A DNA stretch of 62,952 nucleotides, counting the filler, from Klebsormidium nitens (lineage: Eukaryota > Plantae > Klebsormidiophyceae): assembly GCA_000708835.1 (NCBI GenBank). It is 4 parts of 4 records of this genome, joined end to end, with 100 filler letters (N's around TTAATTAATTAA, not from the genome) between each part and the next. Parts side by side here need not be neighbours in the genome. Positions count along the whole stretch, not along the records: positions 30,591 to 41,684 come from DF238135.1; positions 41,785 to 59,864 come from DF237955.1; 2 more parts are not named here. One strand, 5' to 3'. Each line of letters starts with the position of its first letter. The first letter of the stretch is position 1. The notes under the pieces were generated by a model. That model did not search any database. It was not told the origin of the DNA and saw only the letters and a list, made by a program, of their open reading frames with translations. Below are positions 32,271 to 53,221 of this stretch, one piece after another. The position numbers were made by a program, and so were the translations under genes.

Positions 32271-32603
32271 CGCTTAGAAGATGCAGTAGTCTACGATCAT
32301 GAGATCGAAGTATTGTTAAAGCATGCAGCAATGCATCTATTGCTCAAACCAATCGGTTCCGGCCAATGACAGTCATTTCTCAAGCTTACTCCTCAAGACA
32401 AATCCTAACGTACATCTAGAGGGTACATCTGCAGACGTGCAATAGCATTGCTAGGTTCAAACGTCTATGCCGCGATGAGCCACTGCGAATATAATCTTGT
32501 ACGTGACCGTGGCTACATGCATTGATGTCGACCGTGTATCGATCGTGCATCAATGCATGCTTGTAAGCAATCATTCCCGTCGCATGTGCCGGTGCCCGGA
32601 TGG

Positions 32604-33037
32604 GTGCCAAGTGACCAAGGACTCGCACCAATTCTTCGCGGTCGCTCGTCGCGGACGTCATCAGAGCTAGCCCGGGCCTTGTCTCGCCGCCGGTGTCCAA
32701 GTGTCCAAGGTCCGCACCAACTTTTCGCGGTCGCTCATTGCTGACGTCATCACAATGCGAGCATGTCCAAGTGTCCAAGGTCTGGCACCAACTTTACGCG
32801 GTCGCTCATTGCTGAAGTCATCACGGTGCGAGCATGTTCAAGTGTCCACGGTCTGGCACCAACTTTTCCCGGTCGCTCATTGCTGACGTCATCACAATGC
32901 GAGCATGTCCAAGTGTCCAAGGTCTTGCACCAACCTTTCGTGGTCGCTCATTGCTGACGTCATCACAGTGTGAGCATGTTTAAGTGTCCAAGGTCTTGCA
33001 CCAACTTTTCGTGGTCGCTCATTGCTGACGTCATCCA
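32604..33037. repeat. 70-71-bp tandem array (6 units) carrying TGTCCAAG-TGTCCAAG and TGACGTCA, 3' of helicase copy 1
   Basis: Units start at 32694, 32764, 32835, 32906, 32977, plus a degenerate unit at ~32604. Confidence 0.9.
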
Positions 33038-33308: not shown

Positions 33309-36300
33309 TCATATAGCGTAAGAGCACCTAATCCCCGGATAGTAGAATTGCCGAGGCGAATCGTTGTTCTTGGCCCTCTTGAATCCCTTTGTATCCATCC
33401 TTCTCCTCAACTCCTCATAGGAGATCCTCTTGGAGGAATACTGCCCATAGCAGGCTGCGAACTCAGCCTGCAGTGTCGACAAACCTTCCCCGACCTCGCA
33501 GTGTTGGTCGATGAACATCTGGAGTTTGTCCGCCTCCCGCAGGTACTCGTCCGTTGCATCCTTCACGGCTTTGGGGGGAGAACCAAGTCCCTCTGCACTG
33601 TCGTACCACTCCACCGAGCCGCGAGCTAACCAGGATAGAATCTGCCGACGCGACTCCTCTTCCTTCATGCGTTCCTTCAGGTGATTGTCTCTGAGGCGGT
33701 GGGTTACGTTCGTTGGGTCGAAAGCGTTTGCATCGACGTACGTGTTGGGAAACGGGATTGCTCGCAGTCGGCGCTCGACGTTGTCCTTGATCGCCGTTGC
33801 GCATATTGCAGGAGGGTAATTTGTCTGCACGAACGGTGTGTGCGTGACAGTGAACTCGACGTTGTTTGTGTGGAGGCACCGCGCCTTTGTTGTGCCGCTC
33901 CCTGTCATCGCCAGGACGATACCTAGATCCACCTGATCCTCTTCGGCCGTCTCGTCGGTGACGGCAAGCCGCACGCCCATCAGCTCGTAGATGTGGTTTG
34001 TAGGCGCATTCTTAGAGGAGGCCTTTTGGCCAGGAGCCGTGACGACCGCGTCCTTGGACATCGTGCCGTAGTAATCGCCTACCACAGCCTGCAGCATCTC
34101 CTTCAAGGCACCCTTTCCATTTCCTGCAGAAGGATCAATGAATAAGTTCAGGTCGAGGTATTACCAAGTGAGTGTTGGACCGGCTCCACCGGAGAGCAGC
34201 AGACATTCGTCCATGTGGCTTGAAACTCGACTTGTAAATTTTTGTCAATCGAAAGGCCAATATGCAGGACCACTGATTGGTCGAGTCCTTTGCCACACCG
34301 CCAAATCCTACACTCTCGCAATGCAGGAGCACGGTCCTCGATGTTAAGAGCAGATGCATCTGGAACTCCCTAGATTCGTACTTGCACAATTTTTCCAAGT
34401 CTTGGATCCGAGACCAGAAAAGTCGGAGAATTACCTCCCGCTCCAAGCAAGAGCACAAAGATGTCCTCCCGAGTGTGGCCATTGATGGCGTAGCCAAACA
34501 GCTTCCGTACGTAGTCGACAAGCTCGGCGTCATGGTTGAAGATGTTGCCTATAAAGGCATCCATGCGCGGAGTGGGATAATTTGTCCCCTGCAAGAATGA
34601 TAGGCACACCTGAAAGATTGAATGGATCAACTCTTTGCCTTGTTAAGCGCAAGAGGAATGGCATCATAGCACGTCTTCAAGCAATCAGAGGTTTTGCACA
34701 CTTGTGCCAGGACGGGATTATATGACTCAAAAGCCTTTAGAAGACTCAATGGCAAAAGCATGCGTGCAGATGGCGTGCTCGGATTCTTGTGAAGATAAGC
34801 AATGGAAAAAAAAAGCGTGCAATCTCCATGAACGGTCCGCCAGCTTTCGTAACGTGTTACCTAGTCAATGAAGCGAGTTGCTCAATTTTCCATGGAGCAG
34901 CATGAGGCGGCGGGCTTACCATGAAGTCCGTCTCCGCGAACTTGGAGCACATGTACTACTGGGGCCGGTGCACATCGAGCTCGCCGGTCCTCAGGAGGAG
35001 CACTCCGTTTTTCACGTTCAAGATGTCTGGATCTGCATCCAGCTGCTTGGTAAAGTCGAAATCAACCAACTCCCCACGGAGAAGTTCCAGCGTACTCGTG
35101 ATCTCCCGGCTGTTGTTGTAGGTGCGCAGGCGCCTCAGCTGCTGCATCAGCGCCTCTTGCTCTTTTTCGTCACTGGTCGTCTCAACAGATGCCTTCCACC
35201 CGTCTCTCACTCTCTCACTCGCGCATAGACGATCCTGAGCTGGTTGATAGGCACGTTCTTCACATAGAAAGCGCTCTTCTCGTCGCGAATGAAACGCGTT
35301 TCGTTCCAATACCACCAGCTTTCTCTATCGAAACGCAGCCTGCGGAAGGGCAAATACTTGGCATAAGTGCTAATGAAGTAACGTGTTGATTCACACCAAT
35401 CTCGACCGACGTTCTCAAAGCGTCTTTTATCTTGCGTTGAACAGTGTCAAAAACGGCTCTGATCGGCAGTAAAGCATTTCCAGCAGAGCAAAGCACGATG
35501 ATGATGTCAGCAATGGGCGACCACGAAAAGTTGGTCACAGAGCTTAGACATTTGGACGCGCCCAAACAGGCCCACGTTCTGATGACGTCAGCAATGGATG
35601 ACAACGAAAAGTTGGACACAGAGCTTGGACACTTGGACACGCCAAGACAGGCCCACGTTCTGATGACGTCAGCAATGGACGACAACAAAAAGTTGGACAC
35701 TGAGCTTGGACACTTGGACACGCCAAGACAGGCCCGCGTTCTGATGACGTCAGCAGCTTTGAGAGCTGGTCAATCCAAGATCTGACGAGTATTTTCCGCA
35801 ACTCTTGACATTATCGCAGAAGCTGCTGCTCAAAACCTTTGGTTACCTGTAACGCTTCAAGCAACCAAAAACACGATTCACCGCTGACAGATTTTTCAGA
35901 GCCTCCGACCTACTGGGAACACTCCCGGGACATTCCCACCTGCCGCAGCTTGCATACATCTCAGCGACAATCTTGATGCCGCCGACGTCTCCCTCAAAGG
36001 CCCAGGCGTCTACAAATCTCTTGTGCAGACTGTTGATCGCGCTAACGTCATCAGCACTGAAAGCCCGAGTCTCGCCCCCAGACATCGCCTCCGAGCGCGT
36101 AAGCTCTCCAATCTTGAGCAGGGGGCGGACCCCATGGCACTCCGAGCTGTTGCAGCAATAGAGCAGGTTCTTCTTGCGCACGAGCACGGAAAAATTGTTG
36201 GAACTGTCGTGGTGATTACCGTACGGGCAGCGTCAAGGGCCAGCCACTCGAAAGACGTACATTGGCCCGCTGTCGCCCATCTTGAGGCGATCAAAACGGG

Positions 36301-37715
36301 AGGCGGCCCGTGTCGCCCGTGGCAGCCACACAGGCCTTGACGCGCTCCAGAACCGCTGCTGGGGGAGTCAGCCGAGGGTCTTTGATTGGACGAGGAGGTC
36401 CAAACAGTACAGCCTGCGGCTCACTGCATAAAAGCGGGGCGCTCTGTTGTTGAAATCCTGGAAAACTGGATTGTAGTTGCTAGCACTTTGAATGACCGGA
36501 TCCGAAGTAGACTTTGTGAATAGAGAGACAGAGCCCCCCGAGTCTTTAGCAGAAGCCCGATCGGACAGTGAGCTTGAAAGCCATCAAACGGACCAGATTT
36601 ATCAATCTGAGAAGCATGGCATGCGTGCCACCGGTCGCTAGTGCACAGGGTCTAGTGGCCATCATCGATTAATACCCTACAAGTAGAGGCAAGCAAGCCT
36701 TGGACCGCAACAATCATTAAGATACTTTTAGCAGCTTAAAGACGTTTCAACGGTCTTGCTAACACTCCCAAATCTATAGAAGCGTGGAGAGGTCGGAAAA
36801 ATGATGCTTTTCAATCGCCTTCGCTGACGTAACTTCTCAAAGACACCAAAAGGTGCGCTGAAGCTTGGACAACACAGACATGCCCAGTCAAAACCAAATG
36901 CCGAACCAATTGAACTCAAATGGATTGCGTTACACTCTTCTACTCGTATCAAATATCTACCGGATGCAGAAAAGATAAAGTCAAAGACGACTTCAAGGCC
37001 ACGTATGGAGCACTGAGTAGTACATACCGGGCCCCATCACCATCCCAAGGCACCCGCCCACGGCCGCTTGGCGCTTCGCCGCTGTCGTTCAAGATGCGAC
37101 TGAGCCAGTCGGGCGCGGCTCGGAGATTGGAGCGGTTGGGCAGAATCTCGTGGTCCCACTTGTAGCAGCGCAGCGTGCCGTCGAGGCCCGTGTAGCTGCT
37201 AGGTGCGGTGTACAGCATTCCCCGCCTTCCACGGACATCAATGCCCACCGCTTTGCCCTTGTACCGAATCTTTGCCTTGTTGGCAAGTTGCACAGGCCGG
37301 CCTTCTCGGACAGAGACAGAGAAAAGAGGATGTGCAGTCCTCCATTTCCTTGGAGGACTCGCGGCGTGTCCTCCAAAAACCCTCCATGCTCTTCGAGCAT
37401 TTGCTCGAGTGCTTCGAAGCCCCCGTCCTTGACGTCAACATCGAGAGCATAGATGTCCGACTGCTCCGTGATAATGGCGATAGAGTTGCGCCCTGGCTTG
37501 GCAAACTCCTGGAGACAGTTGCCAAGGTTTGCCTCCTTCCAAGGCTTGGACTCGGAGCCCCAATTGCACGGCTGCTTCCGGACTTGACCGTTTGGAAACT
37601 GCTTTTCGAGAAGGTCGTGGGTGACTGTCACAACGCCAAGGCTGTGGAAATGATGAGCGGCGGCCAGGACGGAGTCGATCGCCAGTACAGGAGCTTCGAT
37701 AGATGGGCTCAGTCC
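33309..37715 (-). pseudogene. Primase-helicase copy 1: Prim-Pol + Zn ribbon + D5_N + SF3 helicase + wHTH; at least 3 spliceosomal introns; inactivated
   Basis: Prim-Pol motifs YALDVDVKD, GLHILF, GIDVRG; Zn motif RCPYGNHHDSSNNF..LLYCCNSSEC; introns 35340-35846, 34589-34919, 34124-34434 restore RYR|LRFDRESWWYW, DFM|GTNYP and Walker A GAG|GNGKG; Walker B LAVTDE; motif C QTNYPP; ERRL. Lesions: frameshift ~37280, TGA at 36233-36235, frameshift ~35210, TAG at 34956-34958. Confidence 0.9.
35499..35756. repeat. 81-bp tandem array (3 units + partial), inverted relative of the 32.6-kb array, inside the 35340-35846 intron
   Basis: tgatgacgtcagcaat...gaaaagttgg...cttggacacttggacac at 35499, 35580, 35661, 35742; reverse complement matches the 32694-33037 unit core. 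Confidence 0.9.
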
Positions 37716-37802
37716 CTGGAGGGAGAAAAGATGGATTTTTTAGATCAGCCTGCTCTTGATCTTGAAAGGCACTCAAGCATGCCCCACTATTGGAAGAAAA
37801 GG

Positions 37803-38318: not shown

Positions 38319-39149
38319 ATGGATGCCTTGCGTCAGCTGTTCACCGACAACATTCGAACTCAGGCATCCGTTGATCAATACGTAAGGGGCATTGCCCGTA
38401 TCTATCAATTGTGCCATGATCGACAACTATCCAATACAGATGATTTAAGCTTTTTGGAAACAGACGCACACGTTTTCACTCAGCTCGTGCATGATCGATA
38501 TGCAAATCCTGGATCAAGAAGGACCCGATTGGCCCCTTTTCTTGCCGCTTGTAAAAAGCTCGGAAACTCAGAAGCTTATCAGATTTATTTACAGCCCTTT
38601 CAGAAGGATAATCAGCCGTTGAAAGAACTTCGTGAGGAACAAGCCGCTGAATCGGGGCATGACCCTATGAAACAACTCGAGATGTCACGTGAAGACATTG
38701 ATCTTTTGGGTAGCAAGCTTGCCTGAAAGGTCCGATCTTTGTCACACGTTGTTGCAGACGACCTCGACAGAAAGGATGTGAAAACCATAATGATACATTT
38801 GCTCGTTGAATGGCATCTTCTGATAAAAAAGCACGTCAGACGAGGTGTGAAGATCTATCATTTACCTATCATTCTCAAGAGGAGTGGAGGCCAGCACGAT
38901 GACACCGAAGATGCACTGATCCAGACAAGTCGGTCAAATAACACGATTTGTTTACTGAAACAACAAGAGTTGTACGAGCTTCCAACAATGTTTTGTAAGT
39001 ACCTTGCTAGAACGTTAGAGCTCATCCCTCGAGACTTTTTTATAACCTCAGTGTCTGATCCGCTAACACCAATGTCAGGGAGCAATTACAGCAATTTCTG
39101 CGGTAAGCTTCTTTTCAACGGAAAGTCACTCAATCTTGAACGCATCTAA
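38319..39149 (+). pseudogene. Degenerate or truncated tyrosine-recombinase paralogue
   Basis: ORFs 38319-38726 and 38739-39149 are in the same frame, separated by one TGA. N-terminus (SVDQYVRGIARIY...DDLSFL...LAPFLAACKKL) aligns with both intact YRs (TVEQYCARVMRLF...DSLDWV...LSPLLVIARKL). C-terminal LLRH/MGH/Y motifs absent. Confidence 0.65.
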
Positions 39150-39228
39150 CTAGACTTGTTTTCTAGCCGAAAAATAAATCTAACGATAAGTTTAGCTGAA
39201 GGACTCCGGCTGCGAAGCTACAAGAAAG

Positions 39229-40332
39229 ATGGCCACACGGGTAGTTCACATCGAGGGGCCACACAATCAGAGGAAGGCATCGCCATCGCAGTTACCAAAA
39301 CTAAGGAGCATCCTCAAGGTTAAAGATGGTCGTGATGGTTCAGAGGCAACTTTACGGGCCGACTCTACCGTGAATGTATACCTCCGCCAGATCCTAAACA
39401 TATACACAATTCTTAACCCAAACCAGCAACTAGATGACGATGTGTCTATAGATTGGATAAAAGATTATGGAACCGTGATAAATGCGATCGAAAGTTTGTT
39501 AGACAGAAAAGGAAAACCCATCAAATCGCTTACAAAAAGTTCTTATGCGGCACCATTTTCAATCCTTGCTCAGAAGAAGGGCTTCGAGGACGCACAACGA
39601 GCGTACGGTGATTTCATTGAAGCAAAAAAGCCTACCGAGGTCGAGCTGGATGAAACAATGCAACGCAAGACACCAAAGGAGCTTGAAATGTGGGTGCCTT
39701 GGAAAGAAATGATCAAGGTAAGAGACAACCTTGATCAGATTATCACACGAACAATCATTGAAAAATTTAGAAATGGTCGTGCATTGACGCGTAGCGATAA
39801 AGAACTCGTTAACGACCATTTGATCCTAAGCTTGTACACAATGCCTCTCGGGCCCCTACGGAACGAGTTTGGGAGTTGTCGAATTCTCATAAAGGAGGAA
39901 ACTGAAGAATTTGAAGCAAAACCTGGTGACATCAATACATGTATTCTAACAAAGGATCTTGAGCATTGCCAATTTGTTATCAGCAGCCACAAGACACTCA
40001 ACAAGGTGGGCATACGGAGATTGCACATTCCTGAAAATCTAGTCAATGTCATTCTTCGAAGCTCTAATCTCTTTCCAAGATACTACTTGGTCATGAAACA
40101 TTACTATCTTGGCTTTAAAGATGAACCAATCAATAATTTTACCATTGTACTGAACGATTTGGGTCAACGTCACTTTGATAAGAATCTATCGTGCACGTTG
40201 CTCCGTCATATTTCGCATACAGAGCTCACACCCAATTTGGGTTCCCGAGGGGAGGTACGAAAAAAGTGTGAATGGATGGGGCACTCGCTTTCAACGGCAC
40301 TCAATCATTACGAGCGGCGGTGGTCACGTTGA
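39229..40332 (+). CDS. Tyrosine recombinase (PLV/virophage/NCLDV-type)
   Basis: 367 aa; catalytic-type motifs PLRNEF (R), SHKT (K), LLRHI (R), MGHS (H), NHY (Y) in the correct order. Confidence 0.9.
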   Translation: MATRVVHIEGPHNQRKASPSQLPKLRSILKVKDGRDGSEATLRADSTVNVYLRQILNIYTILNPNQQLDDDVSIDWIKDYGTVINAIESLLDRKGKPIKSLTKSSYAAPFSILAQKKGFEDAQRAYGDFIEAKKPTEVELDETMQRKTPKELEMWVPWKEMIKVRDNLDQIITRTIIEKFRNGRALTRSDKELVNDHLILSLYTMPLGPLRNEFGSCRILIKEETEEFEAKPGDINTCILTKDLEHCQFVISSHKTLNKVGIRRLHIPENLVNVILRSSNLFPRYYLVMKHYYLGFKDEPINNFTIVLNDLGQRHFDKNLSCTLLRHISHTELTPNLGSRGEVRKKCEWMGHSLSTALNHYERRWSR

Positions 40333-40416
40333 TCCGCACTTGATATACAGGTGCGCGTTTTTTATCAAAAACAATTTCTTTCTCTGGAAGTAACGGTAGT
40401 GTCGTTGCCGTGCACC

Positions 40417-40650
40417 ATGACTGGCAATCACGACCACTCAGGCTCCACTTTGTGTGCAGCATGCTTGGAATCTGCAAACTATAAGGAGGAACAACAAGCC
40501 AAAAGCAGGACCTATGCACACGCATATTATGATTCTAACAAAGAGCGAATACTGCTCAAGAAAGCTCTTGAACGAATGGAGAAGGGTGTTCGAGTCAACA
40601 GACGTACTATGGAACGTTTACACGAGGCAAAGATCTACATTGCTGTCTAA
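40417..40650 (+). CDS. Small His/Cys + basic-helix protein, copy 1 (77 aa from ATG 40417)
   Basis: HDH..TLCAAC...AYYDSNKERILLKKALERMEKG..NRRTMERLHEA; homologous to 46616-46939. Confidence 0.75.
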   Translation: MTGNHDHSGSTLCAACLESANYKEEQQAKSRTYAHAYYDSNKERILLKKALERMEKGVRVNRRTMERLHEAKIYIAV

Positions 40651-40806
40651 GCATCGTAAGTCACCCTATTTAGATCGTGTAACAAACATCTCAACATATC
40701 CTTCCAGCACTCATATGGAGATGTACCATGTTGTGCCACTCTCCCTCTGAGATGCCAGCAGCTTGTGGATTGTGGACCTGTCGATCGAGTGTCGTGTTGA
40801 AGTGTT

Positions 40807-41683
40807 ATGATGCTTCGTGCATACAATGAAAACCATTTGGAAATCTTGAGAGGGTTGTTGTTCATAGGCGCGCCGTGGACTTCGGATGGCTTAGGGCGCG
40901 TTTCAATACCAAGAAATTTTTCTAGAATAGAAAATATTGCACAGTGGCCGGAGATGGAACTGTTGAAAATATTCGAGGAGTACGCTAACGAAGGCCTGTA
41001 TGCTATTCCGGCAAAGGCTTTACTAGGGCAAGATGGGTGTAGTAAGAGGGTACTCGGAACTATGCCACATGCGAACGGGGGCACAGCTATACGGTCAGCT
41101 TCCGATTGGAATGCTTCAAAGAAGAGAATGAAGGAATACGTACACGAAAAACAGTTCAATTCTATCGCAATCAAGACTGGCTGTATATCGGATGTATACG
41201 TTCTGGATATTGATGTCAAGGACAAAGAGGACGAAGACGTATCGGCTGGAATGCCGTTTTGGAAGAGCTTGATTGACAAACATGGAGAGCCAAACACGTT
41301 AAAAGCAACTACTCCTCGTGGCGGATTTCATTACTACTTCTCGTTTTCGAGCATCCTCAAAGATGGTCTCAAGTCCGGTAAGAACTTTGTGGGTGTAGAT
41401 GTGAATGGTCAAGTCTATGGAATTGATGGTCGTGGTGAAGGGGGAATTGCGTTTGCTCCACCGAGCTCGCTTGGCAATGGAAAAGAATACAAATGGAATG
41501 TCACACCGAAAAGGACCAATATTGCAACCGCTCCAGCATGGGTGATTGAACTCATAAATACTTCTGCTAGACGAGTTGGTCGTAACGGACAGATAGACAT
41601 ACATGACGCATCCCGAATAGTGCGTTGTTTAGAGCTCAATGAGCAGGACGAGTCGTTTCTACACACCGCTTTTGCAGACGAAG
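40807..41683 (+). CDS. Prim-Pol (bifunctional primase/polymerase) N-terminal domain, truncated by a gap
   Basis: YVLDIDVKD, TPRGGFHYYF, GIDGRGEGGIAFAPPS, YKW...APAWV; closely parallels the N-terminus of 43650-46511. Confidence 0.9.
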
Positions 41684-41784
41684 GNNNNNNNNNNNNNNNN
41701 NNNNNNNNNNNNNNNNNNNNNNNNNNNNTTAATTAATTAANNNNNNNNNNNNNNNNNNNNNNNNNNNNNNNNNNNNNNNNNNNN

Positions 41785-42895
41785 CCAGCCGTACGCGGCC
41801 CTCCTTCACGCGCTCCTCATCCCGCGCTACTCGTGGGTGTTTGGTCATGTGGTGACGCTGAGGTTGCTTCGCCACCTGCTGCTGGAGGGGCCACTCGACG
41901 AGCGAGGGATGGCGTATCTCTCTAACGACGGCCCCATGCTGGCGGCCATTTTGCGTCTTCACCCCGTGGCAGGGGGGGTGTACGCCTTCCCGCCAATGTT
42001 GCGCCCCCTCATTCGCGACATTTACGCCGTGAACCTCCTCTGCTTCGAGCCGAGCGGGAACCGGCCCCGCTCCTCCTCTTGTTCGCCTTTGGCGGCTCTC
42101 CATGATGCCACCGAGCACTTGTGGACGATCGAGGGCGAGAAGCTGAGGCTCGTGGGCCAGCTGGACGCGGCGGCCATGGAGTACGCGGAGCGGCATGGGG
42201 CGGCGCTAAAGCGGGCTGCCAACTCGCTCATGTTCGAGCTCGAGGTTCGCGAGCCCGAGTGCTATGGGGTGGGGGGCTTCCTCTCGGCGCCGTCGGCAAC
42301 TTATGCCAAGCGGGTCGCAGCCGTCTCGTCGTACGATTTCCACCCTTTGCTGTACGGGCGGCCACGGTTCGTTGATTGGGAGGATGAGGCGGGCCGTGGC
42401 AAAAAGGGATCGGAGGAGCGGCTCACTCAACACTGTAGCGCCCCAAATCCACGGTCGTCCAAGGGCCGTGCGGGGGTCTTCATTGCTTGCTGCCAGGACC
42501 GAGCCCCTTTTGGCTACCATTGGCTCAAGGGGGGCGAGTCGGTGTCGGACTTAGGGACCGTTTTGCTCACGAGGTTCCCGTTTCGGACGCTGCGGGGGCT
42601 CACAATTGTGGAGGATGCCGCGTGTAATGGCCAAGAGTGGTTTTTGAATCGGGTGCCGCAGCTGGCCAAGTTCATGCTGTTTGCCGTCGATCGCTTCCAC
42701 TCGGGGCCCGTGAGTTGCGCTCCATCGGGGGCAAAGCGCTACGCGACGCACACGTGCGCCCCAACCCTTTTTATCGATTCCTTTCCACAACATCGCCAGA
42801 CGATCACGACAGCTTCGGAGGGCATCAACTCGGGGTTGAAGAGATGCGCGGTTAGCCTTCAGCAGATCACGAGTATTAAGCGGCTGCTGAGCTGA
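41785..42895 (+). mobile_element. KDZ (Kyakuja-Dileera-Zisupton) transposase fragment
   Basis: GVFIACC...GYHWLKGGES...LLTRFP...IVEDAACN...LNRVP...FAVDRFH...C...ASEGINSGL matches my recollection of the KDZ core; 5' part in the gap; ends at a TGA beyond which the frame continues. Confidence 0.75.
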
Positions 42896-43340
42896 GTCAC
42901 GACCATCCTCGATACTCTCTTTGAGCGATCAAAGTACGCAGTTTTCTGGAGCCAAGATAGCAATCCTTTGAGGGAATTGATCAAGAGGGGGCGTTCAAGT
43001 TGAGGGCGTTGCCAATATAGATTAATTGCCACGATCCAACAAGGAGAGTAGCGCGCTTTGTGAAGAGCAATAGCAATTACAGCAGGCGGGTGCGTGTGGA
43101 CTGTTGAAATTCCAAAAAGGCTGTTGATTGGGCTAAGATGACACTTTGTTGTATCGATTGCATGATTCGCTACTGATACAACATCGATACACAAATCTAG
43201 GGCGTGTATCATATCAAGAGAGTACACAATTGGTCTTTCAATGACTTCAAAATCGTTCAAAATGCTTGAAAGTGGTGCCTCAAGGAAGCATGTGCGGTGT
43301 GAGTGCGCGGAAAAAGTGTCAAGAGTATGAGAATCTGGTC

Positions 43341-43466
43341 TGATACAATTGATACAGCTGATACACATAATCCCCACATGCTCCTCTCTATATAGCAATA
43401 TTGTTTTTTTTTGTTGTTAAAGAAAATCTGTATAATATGCTAGTGTATCTTGTATCATCTGTATCA
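43341..43466. promoter_or_regulatory. Putative replication origin: inverted iteron triplets flanking an AT-rich core
   Basis: TGATACA at 43341, 43350, 43359 (9-bp period); 78-bp spacer with a T-tract and AT-rich run; TGTATC(T/A) at 43444, 43451, 43460; two more TGTATCA at 43637 and 43646. Confidence 0.6.
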
Positions 43467-43649
43467 CCCCCAAACGGCGCATCACACTCCACGGCCGCCT
43501 TGTTGCACGTTTTTGAGCCCTCATTGAGGCAAATCAACACCCAGCTTAAGATTTAAAAGTCGGAAAAACATCACAATCAGATCATAAAGTGGAGATTTTG
43601 ACGCTGATTCACGTCCGTTCGAAATGGCGAAATTCTTGTATCAAGTGTA

Positions 43650-46511
43650 TCAGGTCCCTTTGCGGACCTTCCCCTGCGCATCCGTCTGTTTCAATTCCTC
43701 CTCGGTCTTCAAACGGATCCCAAAGAAGCCTCTTCCTCGTTTCCTACCATCGAGCGTCCTGATCATCGGGTTGTTTCCCCCACCCGGCGGCTTTTGCGAG
43801 AATCCCTTCAAGCACATCGCTCTTGCCAATCCGTCACCCGCCAACTTTACGTCGTGTCCGCCCGCATACAAGAAGTTCGTGAAAGCCTCAACAAAATCGG
43901 ACTTGGCAACACTTAAACCCGCGCCCTCAGTCATGCAAGCCTTGTCGTTCTCCTCCGTATACTCCTTTGCCGCCGCGCTAAACTCTTGAGGGACCGGCGA
44001 AAGAACCTTCAAGGCCGGAGCCAATGCCTTTTTGGCGTAGTACATGGTCGCTCCCTGAACGCAAAAGTCGAGGGTGTCTGCTGCACCTGCGTCTGATTCA
44101 AAGTAGGGCTTGAGAGTCAAATCAATTGGTTTGTGATATTTGTTGGTTGCATCAAGCTCGTCGGGATTTTTGAACGTGTAATTGAACATGATGAGCACGA
44201 TCCGGCAAATCAGTGCGCTATCGTCACTTGGAAAGTGTGGTCGAAAGTTGGTGAACAAACAGAGCTTGTACTGAGGCACGTAGCTTTGCGGCTTGCAAAA
44301 TAGCTCGCGCGCATCTAGCTCACCACCGCCGCTTGCCTCCTTCACAAAGGACGCGTGCAACTCTTCGACCCCTTCTGATTCGTCGTTTGTAACAAACCTC
44401 TTTGTTCGGATCTGCATGAGGTGAGTCGATGCAGCAGAAGCATTGGCCTTGAAGGTAGGTTTGATAAAAATGGCCTTATTACCGGCGCAATTGTAGCTTC
44501 CAAAGGCCTTTCGAAGCGCTTGTTTCAACACCCCTTTTCCATTCGCTCCGCTTAAGCCATTGGCAATGACAAAAAGCTCCTCAGACGTCTCACCGGTAAG
44601 ACAATATCCAAGAAACATTTGAAGCCAATCAATCGCCTCCGGTGGAAGAACTTCCATCAGAAACGACCGAAATCTCGCAGTGGGCCACGTGGAAGCGCCC
44701 GAGATATACTCACTCGTCTGATTATTGCAGAGATTGTGAGGATGGTGGGGCAGGAGCTTGCCCGTTCTTAGGTCGATCAACCCATTCGGTGCATTTGCAA
44801 CCGCGCGATCTTGATCGAATTGGTCGAGCAATCCCTCAACACGCAACTCGGTGACCACAGACTGCATACACTTGCGAACGTCGGAAGGGTCCTGGACGTT
44901 GATCTTTCCAAAGCTGGGCATGATCTTGTCGAGCTCCTTCGTGCATGCCTCCGTGGCCATCTTGATCTTCTTCATCTGCTTGGGATTGACCTCTTCACGG
45001 TCGAGACGCTTAAAGACACCGCCAACAACAAAGCCCTCTAATTCAGAACGGCTTGCATACAAAGTGCCCAAACATCTCTCTCGTTGCCGCTCGTACCACG
45101 CCAAGAGACAGCCCATCTGACTTGTGAACACGCCCGCAACCAAGTTGAAGGTGTCATGCACCCATGATGTGCCGCTCCACACATAGAAGAGCGGGCCTCG
45201 GCTCTTTGAATCTGCCTCATTGGTGGTCACGAGGATTCGACCCTCGATCATATACAGATAGGCAAAGAGACGCCCCAAGTTGGCATATGCCTCTGGAGCC
45301 GCATGCTCAACGACGATTCGAAGGAGCAAATCTTGAACCTCTTGGCTTCCTCTTGTGTATTGGGTGATTGTATGCATGTCGTCGTGAGGGTCGACCGGCT
45401 CTGTGGTGGCATCTTGCAAAGCCGCCTTCAAATTCTCCAGGACCCCCAACTTTTTGGGCGGCTTATGGGAGCAATCGACGCCATGACAACGATAGTACAC
45501 GTTGCGCCCCCTCTTGAGCAGGTTGAAATTGTTGCTCCCTGAGTGTTGATGACCAAGAAAGCACCTTCGAGGCCCATAAGTTCGATAGCAATAGTAAGTG
45601 CCGTAGAGGCCATGTGACAACGAGCTCGCGTACGTACTCGTCGAGTCGCCGGCCTTCTTTAACATCTTTGATAGCTCCTCCAATAGAAGCTCTTTGCCGT
45701 GTGGCGAATACGTGTCTGAGATTGTGCCAGTTATCTCAAAAGTAGGACTTTTGGCACCTCCAGGCTGAGATGCCTCGGCGCTTGCTCCCGAAATTCTGTC
45801 AGTTGTTTCCTTTCCCCCCTCGCTCGTGATTGCAGGTTGGCCAGCATGATTGTTGACCAATTTCGCTAGCCAAAATGGCATTTCCTGGCACGCTTCATAG
45901 CTAGGAGGTCCATTGATCCACTCATATGTTGCAAGCTCGCCGTGGGCCTTTAGATAGCTTGTCGGTGGAGCGAATATGACCCCCCCCAATCCTCTTCCAT
46001 CGATGCCAAAGGTCTGCTTGTCAACCTTTACACCTGAAAAGTTCTGTTTCCACGTGAGATGAGGCGAGTCGAGCTTGAAGTACAAGTGCAATCCATGAGA
46101 ACCGGTCCTCGCTTTGAGTGTCTCTGGCTCTCCATGGATCCTAACAAGTTGCTCCCAGAGCTCGATCCCCGGTCGCTTCTCGTCCTTTGCAACTACGTCG
46201 ATATCAACCACGTACACTCTACTAACTCCCGCAAGTATTGCAAGCCCGGTTGCATCTCGCTTTTCCTTCATCATAGGATTGATGGACCGCTCCCATGCTT
46301 CCGGTGTTTTGATGTGTGCATAGCTGTGAGGGAAGTCACCCTTCTTCTTGCTCTTATCTTCATCCCACGAGACAGAGACGGGAAGCGCATATAGGCCATT
46401 ATTGGCAAGTCGTTGGATCTCGTCTCTGATACATCGAGTCCCACGGGCCTTGGGGTCTTTTGGGGCCGAGGCCATAGAGCTGGGAGCTTGGACAGCTGTT
46501 TGCGTGGCCAT
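43650..46511 (-). CDS. Primase-helicase copy 2, uninterrupted and intronless (953 aa): Prim-Pol-ZnR-D5_N-SF3-wHTH
   Basis: YVVDIDV, GLHLYF, GIDGRG; RRCFLGHQHSGSNNF...YYRCHGVDC; NAPNGLIDLRTGKLLPH; Walker A GLSGANGKG; Walker B FVTNDE; ASGGGELDARELF; LFTNFRP. Confidence 0.95.
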   Translation of the reverse strand: MATQTAVQAPSSMASAPKDPKARGTRCIRDEIQRLANNGLYALPVSVSWDEDKSKKKGDFPHSYAHIKTPEAWERSINPMMKEKRDATGLAILAGVSRVYVVDIDVVAKDEKRPGIELWEQLVRIHGEPETLKARTGSHGLHLYFKLDSPHLTWKQNFSGVKVDKQTFGIDGRGLGGVIFAPPTSYLKAHGELATYEWINGPPSYEACQEMPFWLAKLVNNHAGQPAITSEGGKETTDRISGASAEASQPGGAKSPTFEITGTISDTYSPHGKELLLEELSKMLKKAGDSTSTYASSLSHGLYGTYYCYRTYGPRRCFLGHQHSGSNNFNLLKRGRNVYYRCHGVDCSHKPPKKLGVLENLKAALQDATTEPVDPHDDMHTITQYTRGSQEVQDLLLRIVVEHAAPEAYANLGRLFAYLYMIEGRILVTTNEADSKSRGPLFYVWSGTSWVHDTFNLVAGVFTSQMGCLLAWYERQRERCLGTLYASRSELEGFVVGGVFKRLDREEVNPKQMKKIKMATEACTKELDKIMPSFGKINVQDPSDVRKCMQSVVTELRVEGLLDQFDQDRAVANAPNGLIDLRTGKLLPHHPHNLCNNQTSEYISGASTWPTARFRSFLMEVLPPEAIDWLQMFLGYCLTGETSEELFVIANGLSGANGKGVLKQALRKAFGSYNCAGNKAIFIKPTFKANASAASTHLMQIRTKRFVTNDESEGVEELHASFVKEASGGGELDARELFCKPQSYVPQYKLCLFTNFRPHFPSDDSALICRIVLIMFNYTFKNPDELDATNKYHKPIDLTLKPYFESDAGAADTLDFCVQGATMYYAKKALAPALKVLSPVPQEFSAAAKEYTEENDKACMTEGAGLSVAKSDFVEAFTNFLYAGGHDVKLAGDGLARAMCLKGFSQKPPGGGNNPMIRTLDGRKRGRGFFGIRLKTEEELKQTDAQGKVRKGT

Positions 46512-46615
46512 GATGTCTGTACTCTAGTCAGGAAATAATGGGGCTGATTGAAACGCGCTTCACTGCCAACTGCGTTCTCATACTACTTATTTCCGAATCC
46601 TAGTCATAGGGCATC

Positions 46616-46939
46616 ATGGTCCAAAGCACGTATTCCTCGAGTGATATTAAGATCCATCCATGTCATTGCCGTGTCTGCGAAACAAGCCGCGCGTACCAAA
46701 AAGAGCACCATGAGCAACACGCGCAAAACGTTCGCAGGTACTATGGTCGGAATCGAGAGAACATTCTGCTTCAAAAGGCTTACAAACGATTTCTTTCGGG
46801 CACCACAAAGAAACTCCACAAAACAACGGCTCAGCGACTGATTGATGCTGGCTATAAGGTGCCGCAAAATACATGTTTCTCCAAAGAACCCACGGGCCTT
46901 TCATTGGGCGCCTTCACAAGCTGCATCGAAGTGTCTTAA
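46616..46939 (+). CDS. Small His/Cys + basic-helix protein, copy 2
   Basis: HPCHCRVC...RRYYGRNRENILLQKAYKRFLSG..LHKTTAQRLIDA; homologous to 40417-40650. Confidence 0.75.
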   Translation: MVQSTYSSSDIKIHPCHCRVCETSRAYQKEHHEQHAQNVRRYYGRNRENILLQKAYKRFLSGTTKKLHKTTAQRLIDAGYKVPQNTCFSKEPTGLSLGAFTSCIEVS

Positions 46940-46963
46940 GAGGCCGCCAAGTGGTGAGGTTGC

Positions 46964-48016
46964 TCAAAATTGGATGCGACTTCCATCGGGTTTGTACTTA
47001 AGCTCATAGTGGCGCATCGCGATCGGTGCCGTGTGCAACATCGACTTGGCAAGCTCATCTCTCTCATGGAGGCTTGGCGCATCCTTCATTGCATTACTCA
47101 CAGTAATTTTTCGAAGGAGGCACGATCCCAAATTTGAGTCGGGATAAATGGCTGCTAAGAACTTCGTCAGGTACCCTGACCCCATTGGGGCGTCTGGTGT
47201 CCTCATTCGGCTTAGAAGGTACTTTCGTGGGAAAATAGTGAGACTTTCCGCAATCACATTGCAAAGCCGGGTTGGTATGTCAAGAACTTGTGGGCCGTGT
47301 GTCTTGTCCGTCTTGTAAGAGTTGAGATGAAGCCTATAGGTGCCCTTTGCATACTCTAGAAGGTAGTTGCGAGATCCGGACATCAACTCACGTGCGGCAG
47401 CGCTCCCAACCTCTTCGAAGCGCACGATGGGAAGATCGCTCCAATCATTACGAATTGCTGGCATTTGAGTGTACAAACAAAGGACAAGGTATCGGCAAAG
47501 CGTTACCTTGTCCGCAACAGTGACCTCTTCTGGCCTCTTTGGCACAATGGATCGATTGATCTTCCGTTGAAGCTCGACGCGGCGGTGGTTGATTTCGTCA
47601 AGCGTTTTCCAATTCTTGGCTTCCCGTTCTGACATGTGTTGGGCAGGCCGAGCATCCTCCATGGCCTTTCGAACGGCTGTGTATCTCTTGAAGAGTGCCT
47701 CGTAGGTTCGTTGATCACTAGGCCACAATTTTCGAGCAATAACGAGAAGCGGACTTAGGCTCGTAGCTTGAGTTGGTAGCTTGTCGGAGTACACGGTATC
47801 CAGATACTCGATGATCTTGGTCGTATCCTTCACCCAGTCGAGAGAGTCGAAATCCTCCTTTGGAGCATATATGCTCTTGAATAGACGCATCACGCGAGCG
47901 CAATATTGCTCGACAGTGTAAGGTTTTCGCGTCGAATCATCAAACACGTCATGGAGCAGCTGTTCGCCTGATATTGGGGTCCTTATAACCTTTGTGTTTG
48001 CATCTAAAGCATCCAT
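46964..48016 (-). CDS. Tyrosine recombinase (PLV/virophage/NCLDV-type)
   Basis: 350 aa; AIRNDW (R), SYKTDKTHG (K), LLRKI (R), MLHT (H), RHY (Y). Confidence 0.9.
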   Translation of the reverse strand: MDALDANTKVIRTPISGEQLLHDVFDDSTRKPYTVEQYCARVMRLFKSIYAPKEDFDSLDWVKDTTKIIEYLDTVYSDKLPTQATSLSPLLVIARKLWPSDQRTYEALFKRYTAVRKAMEDARPAQHMSEREAKNWKTLDEINHRRVELQRKINRSIVPKRPEEVTVADKVTLCRYLVLCLYTQMPAIRNDWSDLPIVRFEEVGSAAARELMSGSRNYLLEYAKGTYRLHLNSYKTDKTHGPQVLDIPTRLCNVIAESLTIFPRKYLLSRMRTPDAPMGSGYLTKFLAAIYPDSNLGSCLLRKITVSNAMKDAPSLHERDELAKSMLHTAPIAMRHYELKYKPDGSRIQF

Positions 48017-48280
48017 GCCGTATGTATCTAGATACCGAGAAATTAAAGATGCACGGCCGATGACCGCAAGAGGCTCAGATACCGAATATGCGTGTTCATC
48101 TTGCTTTCCACCGTTTTAATGCGCGTAGAAGCTTTTCATGGTTATCTGACGCGGAGAAGCTCCTAAAACCCGACATGGGGGCCTTATCACTTTTCTAGTA
48201 TCGGCCGATAACCGACTTTTGCCAGATACACGAATATGAGTGTACATAATCTCCAAAACGGTGCTTTTAAAGAGATTCAA

Positions 48281-48871
48281 TTATCTTGGAGAGAGATCTT
48301 TCGGAGACTCGTGGGCGAGACGAGCCTTGTTGGGATTTGCAAGCGACTCTAGCTCCAAGATGGGAGCATCACTCCATACCACGCTGGGCGAATAACGGAA
48401 AGATGATGGAGAGCAGGCGTTGAAACTCGCGGGACCAAACGGAGAAATCTCTTCTTGTTCGCGCAATGTGTTTTTCTGCCGTGGCTCGGTCGATCGCAAC
48501 TTGCGCGCTCGACGCCGAGCTTGGGACGCGTTCTTGAGGGCAATTCTCCAGCTCACTTTGACAGCGTAGGGGCCATTGATGTTCGACTTGTCCCAAAAAG
48601 CATGAAAGCCTTCGGCAACTAACGATCGAACCAGTGATCTGGTGATGTGACGAAGATCAAACGGTTCTGCCAAGGCACGAATGCCTCCAAGCGCAGCTAC
48701 GTCGAGCACGGTTTCGAGTAATCCAAACTCTTGGTAAGATCTGACAATTGCGGATCTAGCGGATTCCAACACTTGTCTGTCCATCTGCTGGATAGCAAAC
48801 TGGGATTGTGGCCGAAACCCGAGGATCGCATCCATTCTAAAGCCTAGATTACGTTCGATAAAAGTTGCCAC
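48281..48871 (-). CDS. Hypothetical protein upstream of the second YR
   Basis: 196-aa ORF with an ATG start, co-oriented with the YR; globular-looking N-terminal ~110 aa ending LVAEGF...YAVKVSW; no family recognised. Confidence 0.45.
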   Translation of the reverse strand: MATFIERNLGFRMDAILGFRPQSQFAIQQMDRQVLESARSAIVRSYQEFGLLETVLDVAALGGIRALAEPFDLRHITRSLVRSLVAEGFHAFWDKSNINGPYAVKVSWRIALKNASQARRRARKLRSTEPRQKNTLREQEEISPFGPASFNACSPSSFRYSPSVVWSDAPILELESLANPNKARLAHESPKDLSPR

Positions 48872-49019
48872 AAAATGACCAAGACTCTCTAATCAATGTC
48901 CCAATTCATGTGCCGCTTGTAGCGGCCTTCGAGTTGAACCTTCGTTCCAAGACATGGACTGATCCCCCCATGCTTGACCCCCCATGCCCTTTGTGTCCTA
49001 GTCCGGCCGCTTTTCAATT

Positions 49020-49635
49020 GACCATACCACGTAACATGTTTGAATATTGTAACTCATGGAGCGATTCGACAGGAGGACAGGACGGACAGGAGATTCTCGT
49101 GTCCGTGTCCCGTCTTATGCAAGTTACACCATACTAAAGGATATTCGAACATTGTGACTTATGAGGCGAATCGACATGTGGACAGGACGGACATGAGATC
49201 TTTCCGTGTCCGAGTCCCGTCTTACGCAAGTTACACCATATCTCCTAACATGTTCGAACATTGTGATTTATTGGGCGAATTGACAGCTGGACAAGACGGA
49301 CAGGAGATTGTCCTGTCCGTTGTCCCTCATTTATGTGACAGGTAGGGGCGTACCTTAGATACATACATATTCGCAAGCTCGGCCGAAATCCGGAAAAGTT
49401 CGTATTATATCTGTTATAATTTCTTTCTTCTCCGGGGAAGGGATAATAACAAATACGCAGTATAGAGTTCTCCTTGTGGGATCCAAATGCCAATATGTAT
49501 GTATGCAAGACCATACCCCGAAAAGTTGCAATATTGATGATCGACTTTTTGGAGACGAAAATATAACGGATTAGTAGTACGGAGTTTTCGTTGTGGGATC
49601 CACATGCCAATATGTATGTATGCAAGGCAATACCA
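49020..49635. repeat. Long direct repeat, copy A (3 x ~110-bp GACAGGA units plus an AT-rich block)
   Basis: Colinear with 58870-59610; shared blocks include accttagatacatacatattcgcaagctcgg and accataccccgaaaagttgcaatattg. Confidence 0.9.
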
Positions 49636-49752
49636 AAACAAATGCAACGTCTGCGGAGAACAATGATGATCCTAGTCAAATCTCACATAGTGCTATCAAT
49701 TCTAGTCGATCCTTCCAGGCTATATGCAAGTCAATGATTCCTCTCCTACTCC

Positions 49753-52700
49753 TTATTCCATCTTAACCTCTACCAACTTGAGCGCAAGGCCCTTATACCC
49801 TCGCTCCGTTATGCCGCAATACTTTACGCCGAGGCCAAGTTTGCTTGGCTTGTCCGAACCCGAGAAGCCGTGGTTGTTCATCGCCGACTTCAGGGACTTG
49901 GTGTCGAGCGAGGGGATATGGCCAACGCACTTGCTGCCCACCATCCTCTGCGGGTCGTTGTACGCCTTGAGGGCATCGCTCGTCGAGATGAAGAGGTCAT
50001 CGCCCTTGACGCAGCTGTTTTGGACGAAGTTGTCGAAGTCGTCGGCGGCCTCTTCGTAGTCCTGCAGGGCGTCCATGCTCCGCATCGGCATGGGGTACAG
50101 CTGCTGCCCGTTCTGGTACCACTTGACCGCTCCTGCGACCAGCCAAGCCCGCAACTCCTGCATGTTCTGCAAGGTGCTCAGCTTGGTGAGAAGTCGCGTG
50201 TCCACCAGCCCGTGCAGCGGGTTGGCCGGGTCGTACCCCTTCTCGTGGGGCGAGAAGTAGCGCCGCACGAAGCAAACCAGCTGAAGACGGCGCCGGAGGG
50301 CGACGGACCAGGTCTTGTCCGTCCGCGGGAGGTAGTTCGTGCAGATGATGAGCTGCAAAAAAGGTTCGAGAAGGGCGCAATCAGAATTTTGTTGGCTCAT
50401 TCCCACGAATTCGAGCATGCCACGTGCTCAAGCCAACAGATTCGAGCATGCCACGTGAGATCAAGCCCTCTTGCTGCTGACAAGAGATCGTATCATGTTG
50501 CTGCCGGATCGAAGTCATTCAATTGCAAGAGTTCGATCGCAATCCATAAGTTGGCCTCACCAGAACGGTCGAAGTGAAGGTGACGTAGTCCCGGAACAAA
50601 GGCCGAGCGGTGATGACGTCGCCGCCGGTGAGCTTCTTCATGCCGGCCTCGTTCAGCGAATCCGACCTCTCGGTCTCTTCGACCGCCGCAAGTAGCGCTC
50701 CGGCAAGCCCTGCACAAAAAGCAGAGATCTTCCGGTCAAAACACTGATGCCAATTCACGCACATTGGGCAGCCCCGAAGACAGGATCGACAGGACGAGAA
50801 TCTGCTGGCGGACAAATTTTGCATTTCCTGCCACATTCGATGAGGAACGAGGTAAAATGCTCAGGACATTGAAGTTTGCAGGACGATCCGACGGGATCGA
50901 CAAGACAGACACGAGAATCTGCCGTCAGACAAACTGTCATGCATCCCTAAGCAAATAAGATGCATCATCATTTTAAGTTTTGGGAGAGAGAGGGAGTTCT
51001 GGTGAAGTCTCACCTGCTTCGAGCGGCGAAGCGGCCCCCTTGTGGGCGGCTCGCTGCCCTTTTGAGCTCACCAAAATCTCCTTGCCAACATCCTTGAAGG
51101 CGGCGCCGAGGAGCTTGCGCAGCAGCGCGAGAAGCAGGCTCTTGCCCGCGCTGCCCTCGCCAACAAAGATCGGCAGTACCTGAGAAAGATCACGAGAGAC
51201 TTTACAAGGCTGCAGATGCTCGGCGGCCACCTTCCACGAAAGTCGTCTGCTGTGACCATCACCACAGAACGGGGAAGCGCCAAGACCTTCGACTGAATGG
51301 CTGGCAATTGATGGGCCGAAGATTCGCGATCCTCCACAGCTAAGTCTTAAAACGGCCTCATGCGGTCGTAGGGTCCTTGACGATTGAAGCAGCACGTAAT
51401 CACTCAAGTCCGTCGAACCTTTGAGCTCACGAGTAAGCATTTTAAAAACTGGTAGTACGAATCCAGTGCTACCTACAAGTTACTTCTGTAACTAAAGCAG
51501 AGTTGGTTGATAGCAGCACCTGCCTGATTGCTTGTGTGACCGGTCAGCCCGTACCCGAGCAGCACCTGGAGGTGCTCCAAAGCGGCCGGCCCATCCTCTC
51601 CGGAAACGTGCATGATGTCCTCCAAGAAGCGCACCATCTCGCTCCTTGGAACCAACGATCCAGCGCGAGGGTACGCCCAGTCGATCACCCGAGTGTTCAT
51701 GAACTGCGAACTGTTTTCGACCTGACTCCGGTGGACTTGGCCAATGCCTCCATAAACACAAACTTTCTGCCGAAGTCCCTTAACTGATCTGCGTTTTTTT
51801 GCACACGGGCACAGATCCATCCCTCACCCGAGGGTGATGCGGAAGCAGCTCGCCGGTCCGCAAGGTCGATGACGCCGTTCGCCACGGCCAAGAAGTCCTT
51901 CTGCACGTCCAACAGGGACTGGAAGCCGGGCTGATAGAAGTAGTCCTTGCACGTTCCGATGATGTTGGACATCTTCGCGTTGAAGTTGACGTTGATCAGC
52001 CTCTCCTCCCTCTCCGTCTTACGCTTCTTCCCGCCACCTGCCGGCTTCGACTTGATCGCACCCCATCCCCCGTCCTCGTCCCCTCTCGATCCGTCTGCCA
52101 CAGCGATCGAGACCCCTCCTCCCCCCCCCTCCTTTGCCTCGCGTATGTACTCGGCCTCGATCTTGGAGAGCTCCTCGCGGAGCACTCGCAGGATGCGGCC
52201 GCCGCTCTCGTCCTTCGCCCAGCTCCGACCAGTCCAGTAGTACGAGCCGGAGGAGGTGAAGGCGAACTTGAGGCCCGTCCGGACGTAGAGGCGCTCCAGG
52301 ATGACGGCGCCACCCACGTCTCCTGCAGATATGGGGAGATCGCATTAGGAGGGAGTGCAGATACGACCGAGATGAAAGTGCTTCCTAGAAGTTAGCGCCT
52401 CATTCAAGGGCCCCAAAACGGGTTTGCAGGGGCGAGAAGGCAGATGGTAAGCAATTCATTCCAAGACTGCGCGGTTGTACGCCCAGTCGTTGCTTCTGAG
52501 CTAGTCTGGCTCTCAAGATCGACGACCGTAGGCATCATGCAGATACGAACGAGAAAAAGTGTCTCTTTTAACTTCTCACATTTACAAAAAGGTGAAAAAC
52601 GGGTCTGCAGACTCCGTCAAAACGCAATGAAAAACAGGAGACTGAAATCCAAATCGCAGTTGTAGGACAGGCCTTAGAGCTGCTTCTCAAAGGAGGTCTC

Positions 52701-53221
52701 GGGAGGCAACATTCGAAGCTCACCTTTCCTAATATTCAGATTCTCTCGCAGAAACGGCAGCGGCAGCAGCTGCCGGTCGGAGTAGAGGTGGTTCCGCTCG
52801 CTGTTGAGCGGCTGACTGTCGCCGAAGGCCGCGGCGATCGGCAGGGGGAGAACGCCTAGGCTGATGTTGCCTGACTGCGCGGTGGCCTCGCAGCTCTCTG
52901 CGTAGCACACGTACGTCACCTCGACCCCCTGCCGAAGGAGCCCAAAGGCGTCGCTGCCGTGCACGCCCTCGCACGTCGCGGCGAAGTAGGGGCACGTCAC
53001 GCGCCCGCCAGGCGCGTTCCGGAACTCGTAGATGACCCCTATGCCCGTCGAGGACGGCTTGGCGCCGCAGAAGACCGAGGTGCTGTCGCCCCAGGTCGAG
53101 AGCAGCTTCTCGAGCTCGCGCACCACCTCGGTCTGGAGCTCAACGTTCGCCAGATCCGGCTCTCTGGTAGCACGGGACACCTCGGGGCTCCCCAGCTTGC
53201 AGGACCGGTGTGCCGCCGCCT
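49753..53221 (-). pseudogene. Helicase copy 3: ZnR-D5_N-SF3-wHTH with at least 5 introns; one frameshift; no Prim-Pol exon found upstream
   Basis: Introns 52323-52723, 51704-51827, 51180-51523 (GC-AG), 50710-51013 and 50353-50560 join KG|DVGGA, HHPR|FMN, TSNQ|VLPIFVGEGSAGKS (Walker A), EAG|LAGALLAAVEE (Walker B) and TVL|LIICTN; ALRRRL; +1 frameshift near 51862 (IDL/RTGELLPHH). Confidence 0.9.

Follow-up and report, generated by a model that had tools for sequence, protein, structure and literature searches.

We analyzed a 62,952-nucleotide stretch of DNA (hereafter, the window) from the genome assembly of the alga Klebsormidium nitens (GCA_000708835.1), in which a module composed of genes for a tyrosine recombinase (YR), a small protein and a primase-helicase is present twice. 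The YR and primase-helicase genes form a multi-copy family with relatives in Klebsormidium-type genomes. There is, in our estimate, an even chance that these modules represent a nuclear YR element that lacks a capsid, replicates itself and descends from the replication and integration end module of Polinton-like viruses (PLVs). The parts of the module are already known; the unusual aspect is that they occur repeatedly, free of a capsid, with gain of introns and along with an origin-like site. The window consists of joined pieces separated by 100-base artificial linkers (N44-TTAATTAATTAA-N44, at 30491-30590, 41685-41784 and 59865-59964), and the modules are located on two of the sequenced pieces, of 11,094 bases (30591-41684) and 18,080 bases (41785-59864), the second of which is a stand-alone public record. 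The 27 kb cited in the original prediction for this DNA are not continuous sequence. As laid out in the window, modules 1 and 2 face each other; their side-by-side placement is a product of the joining, and their adjacency is putative. The linker at 41685-41784 cuts module 1, and the gap must conceal at least the remainder of helicase 1.

All six genes that had been predicted for the two modules were recovered (Table 1): YR1, small1 and the Prim-Pol part of helicase 1 in module 1, and YR2, small2 and HEL2 in module 2. All three pairs match between the modules far beyond chance (YR1 and YR2, 26% identity over 340 amino acids (aa), E 1e-21; Prim-Pol domains, 38% identity, E 6e-32; small proteins, 33% identity over 61 aa, E 4e-8), in agreement with their description as diverged paralogues. 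The modules are the same in gene content but not in arrangement: the small gene shares the strand of the YR in module 1 but is antisense to it in module 2. Neither YR1 nor YR2 itself matches any Pfam or PHROG family, and because neither has its own Pfam match, their identification as YRs required a profile. The search with the YR profile retrieved 3663 relatives; in an alignment of 94 YR relatives, 13 of which match Phage_integrase, residues R189, K235, R302, H328 and Y337 show little or no variation. The catalytic residues are retained in 19-22 of 23 per site, and the histidine of the HxxR motif is substituted by C, T or S throughout the family. The structure model of YR2 (pLDDT 94.5; an earlier AlphaFold model built from 18 sequences, pLDDT 64, was set aside) matches the fold of Cre and lambda integrase, and its best viral structural matches are giant-virus, Polinton-like and virophage proteins. 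YR0, YR1 and YR2 each head a separate subfamily; the broken YR0 and HEL3 are arranged head-to-head, and 80 bases separate the end of YR0 from YR1. The sequence of another copy departs from that of the window after 39139, as if module 1 had been inserted into YR0 (39139-39229); this junction is also spanned by a 97% identical contig of higher depth. Upstream of YR2, 8 bases from its start, there is a perfect palindrome, GTATCTAGATAC (48024-48035), a candidate promoter or recombinase site, with CAGATAC repeats nearby at about 48078 and 48224. With YR-adjacent virophage genes, the small proteins have only a basic motif of 14-17 residues in common, a hint at most. Several virophage loci (L138:10541-10894, L146:9170-9541, L117:9085-9561 and L161:1626-2018) have, immediately downstream of the YR and antisense to it, a small basic gene in the position that small2 occupies. 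Identity of the small protein with DUF5824, the family that adjoins the helicase in virophage loci L148 and L164, was rejected.

The predicted domain order of HEL2 was Prim-Pol, zinc ribbon, D5, superfamily 3 (SF3) helicase and winged helix-turn-helix; the Prim-Pol, D5 and SF3 parts are confirmed, and the zinc ribbon is present only as Cys/His motifs. Pfam recognizes the Prim-Pol and D5_N domains, the C-terminus scores above the cut-off of the P4-family primase model TIGR01613, and the Walker A (GANGKG), Walker B (TNDES), motif C and Prim-Pol motifs are all kept. The two additional helicase homologues that had been noticed in the flanks were identified as HEL3 and HEL4, both of which are broken in these copies. 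Both contain introns, which suggests nuclear life; one HEL4 intron is found at the same place, with a different length, in another copy (joint 50364-50556). The Pfam and frame scan of the window revealed no Prim-Pol or other domain upstream of HEL4, and with respect to CpG depletion, no difference was found.

An origin-like site is located just past the HEL2 stop: three TGATACA heptamers with a 9-base period (43341-43365) are followed by a 76-base spacer with 72% AT and three inverted copies (43444-43466). Within 42990-43660, 12 occurrences of GATACA are observed where 0.27 are expected, and the tandem heptamer pattern has 4 matches, all at this site, but no match in 100 shuffles. In two diverged contigs of run X1, an island of 24-28 bases is retained up to 43466-43471, after which the similarity picks up again in the helicase; of the joints at 43466 and 43471, one was found again in run X5. 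Iterons flanking an AT-rich core mark the origins of P4, Staphylococcus aureus pathogenicity islands (SaPIs) and small DNA tumour viruses. Judging from this pattern, the heptamer site is likely a replication origin; it would be just as reasonable to read these repeats as the inverted repeats that belong to a PLV end module. HEL3 and HEL4 are likewise followed, just past their 3' ends, by tandem arrays that contain inverted motifs of the GGACA type. Direct repeats with 79% identity (48991-49632 and 58886-59610), which contain internal 105-120-base units, enclose the 10-kb HEL4 unit, which may represent an intron-rich helicase element of its own, lacking a YR, or else a head-to-tail array.

The association between the YR and the helicase is not confined to the window. 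YR2 has 25 relatives at 50-90% identity, and HEL2 has 20 non-self relatives (E < 1e-45), 10 of them named K. nitens and located on 10 different-sized records. Linkage is indicated for four of the 20, for which the longest contig is of exactly the same length as that of a YR match, and for a fifth, in which gene model P0036 fuses the YR and the helicase in the same order; the others are uninformative, given that the lists were produced by different gene callers and with different length windows. In addition, a 1407-base contig of run X5, which belongs to another study, bridges HEL2, small2 and YR2 (~93%, 94 differences). Linkage elsewhere, the lack of which would have counted against the original prediction, recurs. 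Protein P0026, 99% identical to HEL2, was considered as a second copy and rejected: its record, which also contains the exact ORF at 41786, is the 18,080-base piece, and its depth is single. Summed contig depth in run X1, a rough measure that is read only as "many diverged copies" and not as copy number, is 92-190 for HEL2, 177-339 for YR2, 51-110 for HEL4 and 129-294 for a neighboring Kyakuja-Dileera-Zisupton (KDZ)-like transposase open reading frame (ORF); it is 65-167 over most of HEL3, YR0, YR1 and Prim-Pol 1, with exact single pieces at 13.5-18.6.

Genes for virion formation were sought in several ways. Pfam searches of 267 frames (25 + 124 + 118, with some alternative HEL2 frames excluded) detected no capsid, penton, A32, protease or pPolB. 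Among 79 family profiles derived from 39 YR-bearing viral loci and compared with all six frames, only the YR and helicase families match the window clearly, and a profile of 120 putative PLV capsid sequences has no match in any of the six frames. The A32-like packaging ATPase and the minor capsid protein were detected in no frame of the sequenced pieces, although Pfam and the same profiles detect them in the viral loci; the Sputnik-type major capsid protein (MCP), penton, ATPase and cysteine protease were likewise not detected in the sequenced pieces, with virophage loci as the positive control. Core genes of the nucleocytoplasmic large DNA viruses (MCP, A32, PolB and VLTF3) were not found in the scanned frames. 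After this profile check, neither a double-jelly-roll MCP nor any other part of a capsid module is detectable in the two sequenced pieces; the predicted absence applies to these pieces and not to 27 kb, because the gap interrupts the region and hides the rest of helicase 1. When the alignment of a putative PLV capsid, a family unconfirmed as a capsid, was used as a query, the best 120 of 303 matches included no protein from Klebsormidium.

The combination of the YR with Prim-Pol-D5-SF3 is known viral equipment. In two motif scans of IMG/VR, the YR family was present, among the matches listed, in at least 57 (121 stretches) and at least 40 (120 stretches), and most of the long YR-bearing IMG/VR stretches carry virophage- or PLV-type morphogenesis genes, as expected given that IMG/VR selects viruses. 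None of the 61 viral YRs among the IMG/VR matches listed falls within the 67-member YR0/YR1/YR2 clade in the FastTree phylogeny (support 0.91-0.997). HEL2 and HEL3 group with 12 homologues in one clade (0.99), to which neither the six virophage and PLV helicases nor the sampled prokaryotic ones belong; this tree excluded HEL4, sampled one prokaryotic locus in three and was rooted at the midpoint, and no donor is claimed. IMG/VR scans with queries from the YR2 clade, HEL2 and the sister clade detected no close relative, and a metagenome scan revealed one distant locus among 117 stretches. The helicase scans retrieved only distant phage and prokaryote genes, with at most 34% identity, and none of those 88 loci contains this YR.

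Several observations weigh against an independent capsid-free element. At module 2, no att-like dyad or terminal inverted repeat was detected, and no element ends were found; no long inverted repeat bounding a module was seen in pieces of only 11 and 18 kb, compared with 15-30 kb for a PLV unit, which often has terminal inverted repeats. The predicted nuclear, self-replicating, YR-integrating family is supported by the multi-copy state, the YR-helicase linkage, the introns and the origin-like site, and not by the ends, which were looked for and not found. The region 41785-46075 is covered by one exact unitig of single-copy depth; module 2 therefore lacks a near-identical twin, and nothing points to recent activity of this copy. 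Module 1 runs into the gap, and capsid genes could lie there or beside other copies; Pfam missed two putative PLV capsid families (which are unconfirmed as capsids), and short-read assemblies collapse copies of such elements. L148 and L164, which are Sputnik-type virophages, encode a YR of the same family and a Prim-Pol-D5-SF3 protein on one strand. The part of Table S5 of PMC10120064 that concerns K. nitens gives seven capsid matches of the PgVV group of PLVs in this assembly, on contigs of 12.9-60.6 kb (KFL_556, 572, 1558, 1713, 2520, 2626 and 2767), and a section of PMC11296320 describes the PLV end module as a mobile unit of repeats, primase-helicase and YR.

The main alternative, at clearly less than an even chance, is that the modules are leftover replication and integration end modules of endogenous PgVV-group PLVs, the capsid module of which has been lost or lies in the gaps. 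The PLV capsid matches in the assembly and the layout of the modules, which agrees with the end-module model, fit this explanation, as do the broken state of two of the four helicases and one of the three YRs in the window, the structural matches of YR2, and the common occurrence of a YR with an archaeo-eukaryotic primase (AEP)-SF3 protein in PLVs and virophages noted in parts of PMC4642659 and PMC12220804. Remnants of PLVs would be harder to reconcile with the surroundings of module 2, which is flanked by 1.8 kb on the KDZ side and by 11.8 kb of capsid-free sequence on the other, and with three diverged subfamilies that all lack capsid neighbors in the sequenced pieces. None of the seven capsid matches in Table S5 of PMC10120064 is on a contig of 11,094 or 18,080 bases, and the YR and helicase copies appear to be more numerous than the seven capsid loci. 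The helicases are, moreover, multi-copy and intron-bearing, and no sampled virus falls in the YR or helicase clade or is a close IMG/VR relative.

A different possibility is that the YR and the helicase are cargo of a large KDZ (Zisupton-type) transposon, such that the DDE transposase rather than the YR moves the unit. The KDZ-like ORF, which contains candidate D/D/E-type motifs, ends 450 bases from the origin-like site, and its depth is similar to that of HEL2 and YR2. The order of KDZ, iterons and helicase is apparently repeated in a diverged X1 contig of depth 31.8, in which the KDZ piece is ~80% identical; the joints and variants on the iteron piece and the helicase were assigned to this contig by equal depth only, so that their location on the same contig is inferred. 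The Plavaka-flanked, YR-rich clusters of Amoebidium, described in a section of PMC11244446, provide a precedent. Nevertheless, in the sequenced pieces there is no KDZ gene beside HEL3/YR0 or HEL4, no terminal repeats or target duplication were found around the cargo (the left end of which falls in the gap), and the YRs retain their catalytic residues; we consider this explanation unlikely. Amplification of endogenous giant-virus fragments by segmental duplication seems the least probable of all: the YR2 fold is nearest to giant-virus proteins and giant-virus insertions in Klebsormidium are reported in a part of PMC11244446, but no scanned frame contains a giant-virus core gene, the helicase is P4-family-like, and only the YR, helicase and small genes recur.

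The known systems nearest to the algal unit include PLVs and virophages with OLV11-like YRs (PMC4642659 and PMC11296320, in the relevant sections; L148 and L164): by profile, the YR is of the same family, a likeness at the family level. Sections of four sources (PMC4642659, PMC12220804, 10.64898/2026.06.19.733378 and 10.1101/2022.07.28.501842) record that PLVs can carry OLV11-like YRs together with AEP-SF3 replicases, and take the capsid, penton and ATPase as the defining genes of a PLV. The PLV feature of a YR or RVE integrase together with pPolB or a primase-helicase is present in the algal unit, as are a Prim-Pol-D5-SF3 replicase on the YR strand and repeats beyond the helicase. In contrast to PLVs and virophages, the algal unit has no detected capsid, penton, A32 or protease, its YRs and helicases form separate clades, introns are present in two helicases, and no terminal inverted repeats were found; compared with L148 and L164, it has a Cys/His domain where the virophages have PriCT_2.

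P4-like satellites and phage-inducible chromosomal islands (PICIs), including SaPIs, combine a YR with a primase-SF3 helicase and have no capsid, and the sequenced pieces of the algal unit share this content. The algal helicase also passes the P4-family cut-off, and the iterons around an AT-rich core lie near the replicase, as in P4. Unlike P4, PICIs and SaPIs, the algal unit has a YR of a protist-virus family and not a phage-type integrase, its helicase is only 25-34% identical to those of phages and prophages, no helper is known, and no tRNA target was found (there was no Rfam or tRNA match). Among the 13 main proteins, the only PHROG matches are to primase/helicase, with no gene for capsid-size determination, terminase, derepression or interference. 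By analogy, the algal unit would work like the P4/PICI core without being a member of that family; the satellite behavior of the P4/PICI type that the original prediction envisaged, for which no packaging-redirection gene was found, is unsupported beyond this analogy. Cryptons are eukaryotic nuclear elements with a YR, short direct repeats at the ends and no capsid, in which introns can occur; to our knowledge, they carry no replicase, and the algal unit is set apart from this description by a 950-aa primase-helicase linked to the YR and by the origin-like site. Transpovirons, small linear capsid-less replicons of giant viruses with terminal inverted repeats and an SF1 helicase, resemble the algal unit in being small capsid-less replicons tied to protist viruses; we know of no transpoviron with a YR or nuclear introns. 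The giant repeats of Amoebidium, which were compared by description only, contain YR gene clusters that adjoin a transposase of the KDZ/Plavaka group, in a protist with a methylated genome; they differ from the algal unit in the transposase group, and the section of PMC11244446 that describes them does not mention a helicase.

Under the proposed origin as a capsid-less nuclear YR element, host Pol II would transcribe the element genes, as the GT-AG introns in two copies suggest, and the YR, with its observed catalytic residues and the chemistry of its family, would excise and re-insert a circle. The helicase may bind the inverted heptamers past its own 3' end and open the AT-rich spacer; the Prim-Pol domain would then prime synthesis, to be completed by host polymerases. 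The small protein might be a DNA-binding regulator or a directionality factor, and three old subfamilies would have accumulated in these pieces, partly nested. More tentatively, and at somewhat less than an even chance, the unit may define an unnamed class of eukaryotic self-replicating transposons with a YR, a small regulator and a Prim-Pol-SF3 protein with an iteron origin, freed from the PLV capsid module, adapted to the nucleus by introns, divided into several old subfamilies and possibly packaged by PLVs as a satellite; the satellite step alone, that is, packaging by the few capsid-bearing PLVs of the host, is improbable. No published description of a capsid-less eukaryotic family with a YR and a primase-helicase was found in a survey of mainly open-access literature, with Repbase outside its scope.

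Table 1. Coordinates of the module genes and other features in the window
Feature	Position	Strand	Remarks
YR1, intact tyrosine recombinase, 367 aa	39229..40332	+	E 7e-73 to family profile; R, K, R, H, Y present
small1, 77 aa, CxxC and basic helix, matches no known family	40417..40650	+	Pfam scan, comparison with small2
Prim-Pol, N-terminal part of helicase 1, cut by the gap	40807..41684	+	PF09250, E 2.6e-17
HEL2, intact, intron-less, 953 aa: Prim-Pol, Cys-His domain, D5_N, SF3	43650..46511	-	Pfam, TIGR01613, motifs
small2, 107 aa, paralogue of small1, antisense to YR2 and HEL2	46616..46939	+	bridged in another sample
YR2, intact tyrosine recombinase, 350 aa	46964..48016	-	profile, structure model, structural matches
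Origin-like site: 3 TGATACA heptamers, AT-rich spacer, 3 inverted copies (one with a mismatch)	43341..43466	.	
YR0, third recombinase subfamily, broken	38319..39149	+	internal stop 38724-38726; C-terminal catalytic part missing
HEL3, broken Prim-Pol-SF3 helicase, GT-AG introns, head-to-head with YR0	33309..37739	-	two introns modelled
HEL4, SF3 helicase, five GT-AG introns, frameshift in D5_N	49753..53219	-	intron modelling, profiles
71-base tandem array with TTGGACA motifs, just past HEL3 3' end	32603..33035	.	inverted related array at 35499-35755
~640-base repeat with inverted GGACA arrays, just past HEL4 3' end	48991..49632	.	79% identical direct copy at 58996-59610
KDZ-like transposase, 5' part missing, multi-copy	41786..42895	+	similarity score 0.94, 180 features; no Pfam match
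184-aa ORF upstream of YR2, membership in the element uncertain	48281..48835	-	best lead score 0.79
Artificial linker, 100 bases	41685..41784	.	cuts module 1; adjacency of flanks putative

The remainder of the window is of a different nature. The first 30 kb reads as ordinary host genes; the host-like genes at 6042-11763 and 19992-29460 are, by eye and with only weak Pfam matches, one gene with armadillo-like helical repeats and one for a long coiled-coil protein. Segments 30591-32300 and 53300-58800, which are unassigned, contain short tandem repeats (109- and 110-base units; TGACAAT motifs), the former moderately multi-copy and the latter near single-copy. A repeat of very high depth occupies 59272-59864, and pieces of a LINE-type retroelement with an endonuclease match are found at 59965-62952. 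For the ORF at 48281-48835, which was assigned to no family, the only lead, a weak one, is to the giant-virus DUF5759 cluster. Run X15 shows a marked excess of C>T and G>A on 30591-41684, as in chemically converted DNA, and was not used as evidence.

Passages of PMC4642659 and PMC10120064 relate that large "self-synthesising" eukaryotic transposons once deemed capsid-less (Polintons, Tlr1 and the Trichomonas Mavericks) were all later found to encode capsids. If the multi-copy unit is truly capsid-free, it would represent the missing plasmid-like stage that is predicted by the mobile end-module model, as set out in a section of PMC11296320. Such a unit would escape capsid-based surveys. It also offers a testable origin sequence and a recombinase in a cultivable relative of land plants.

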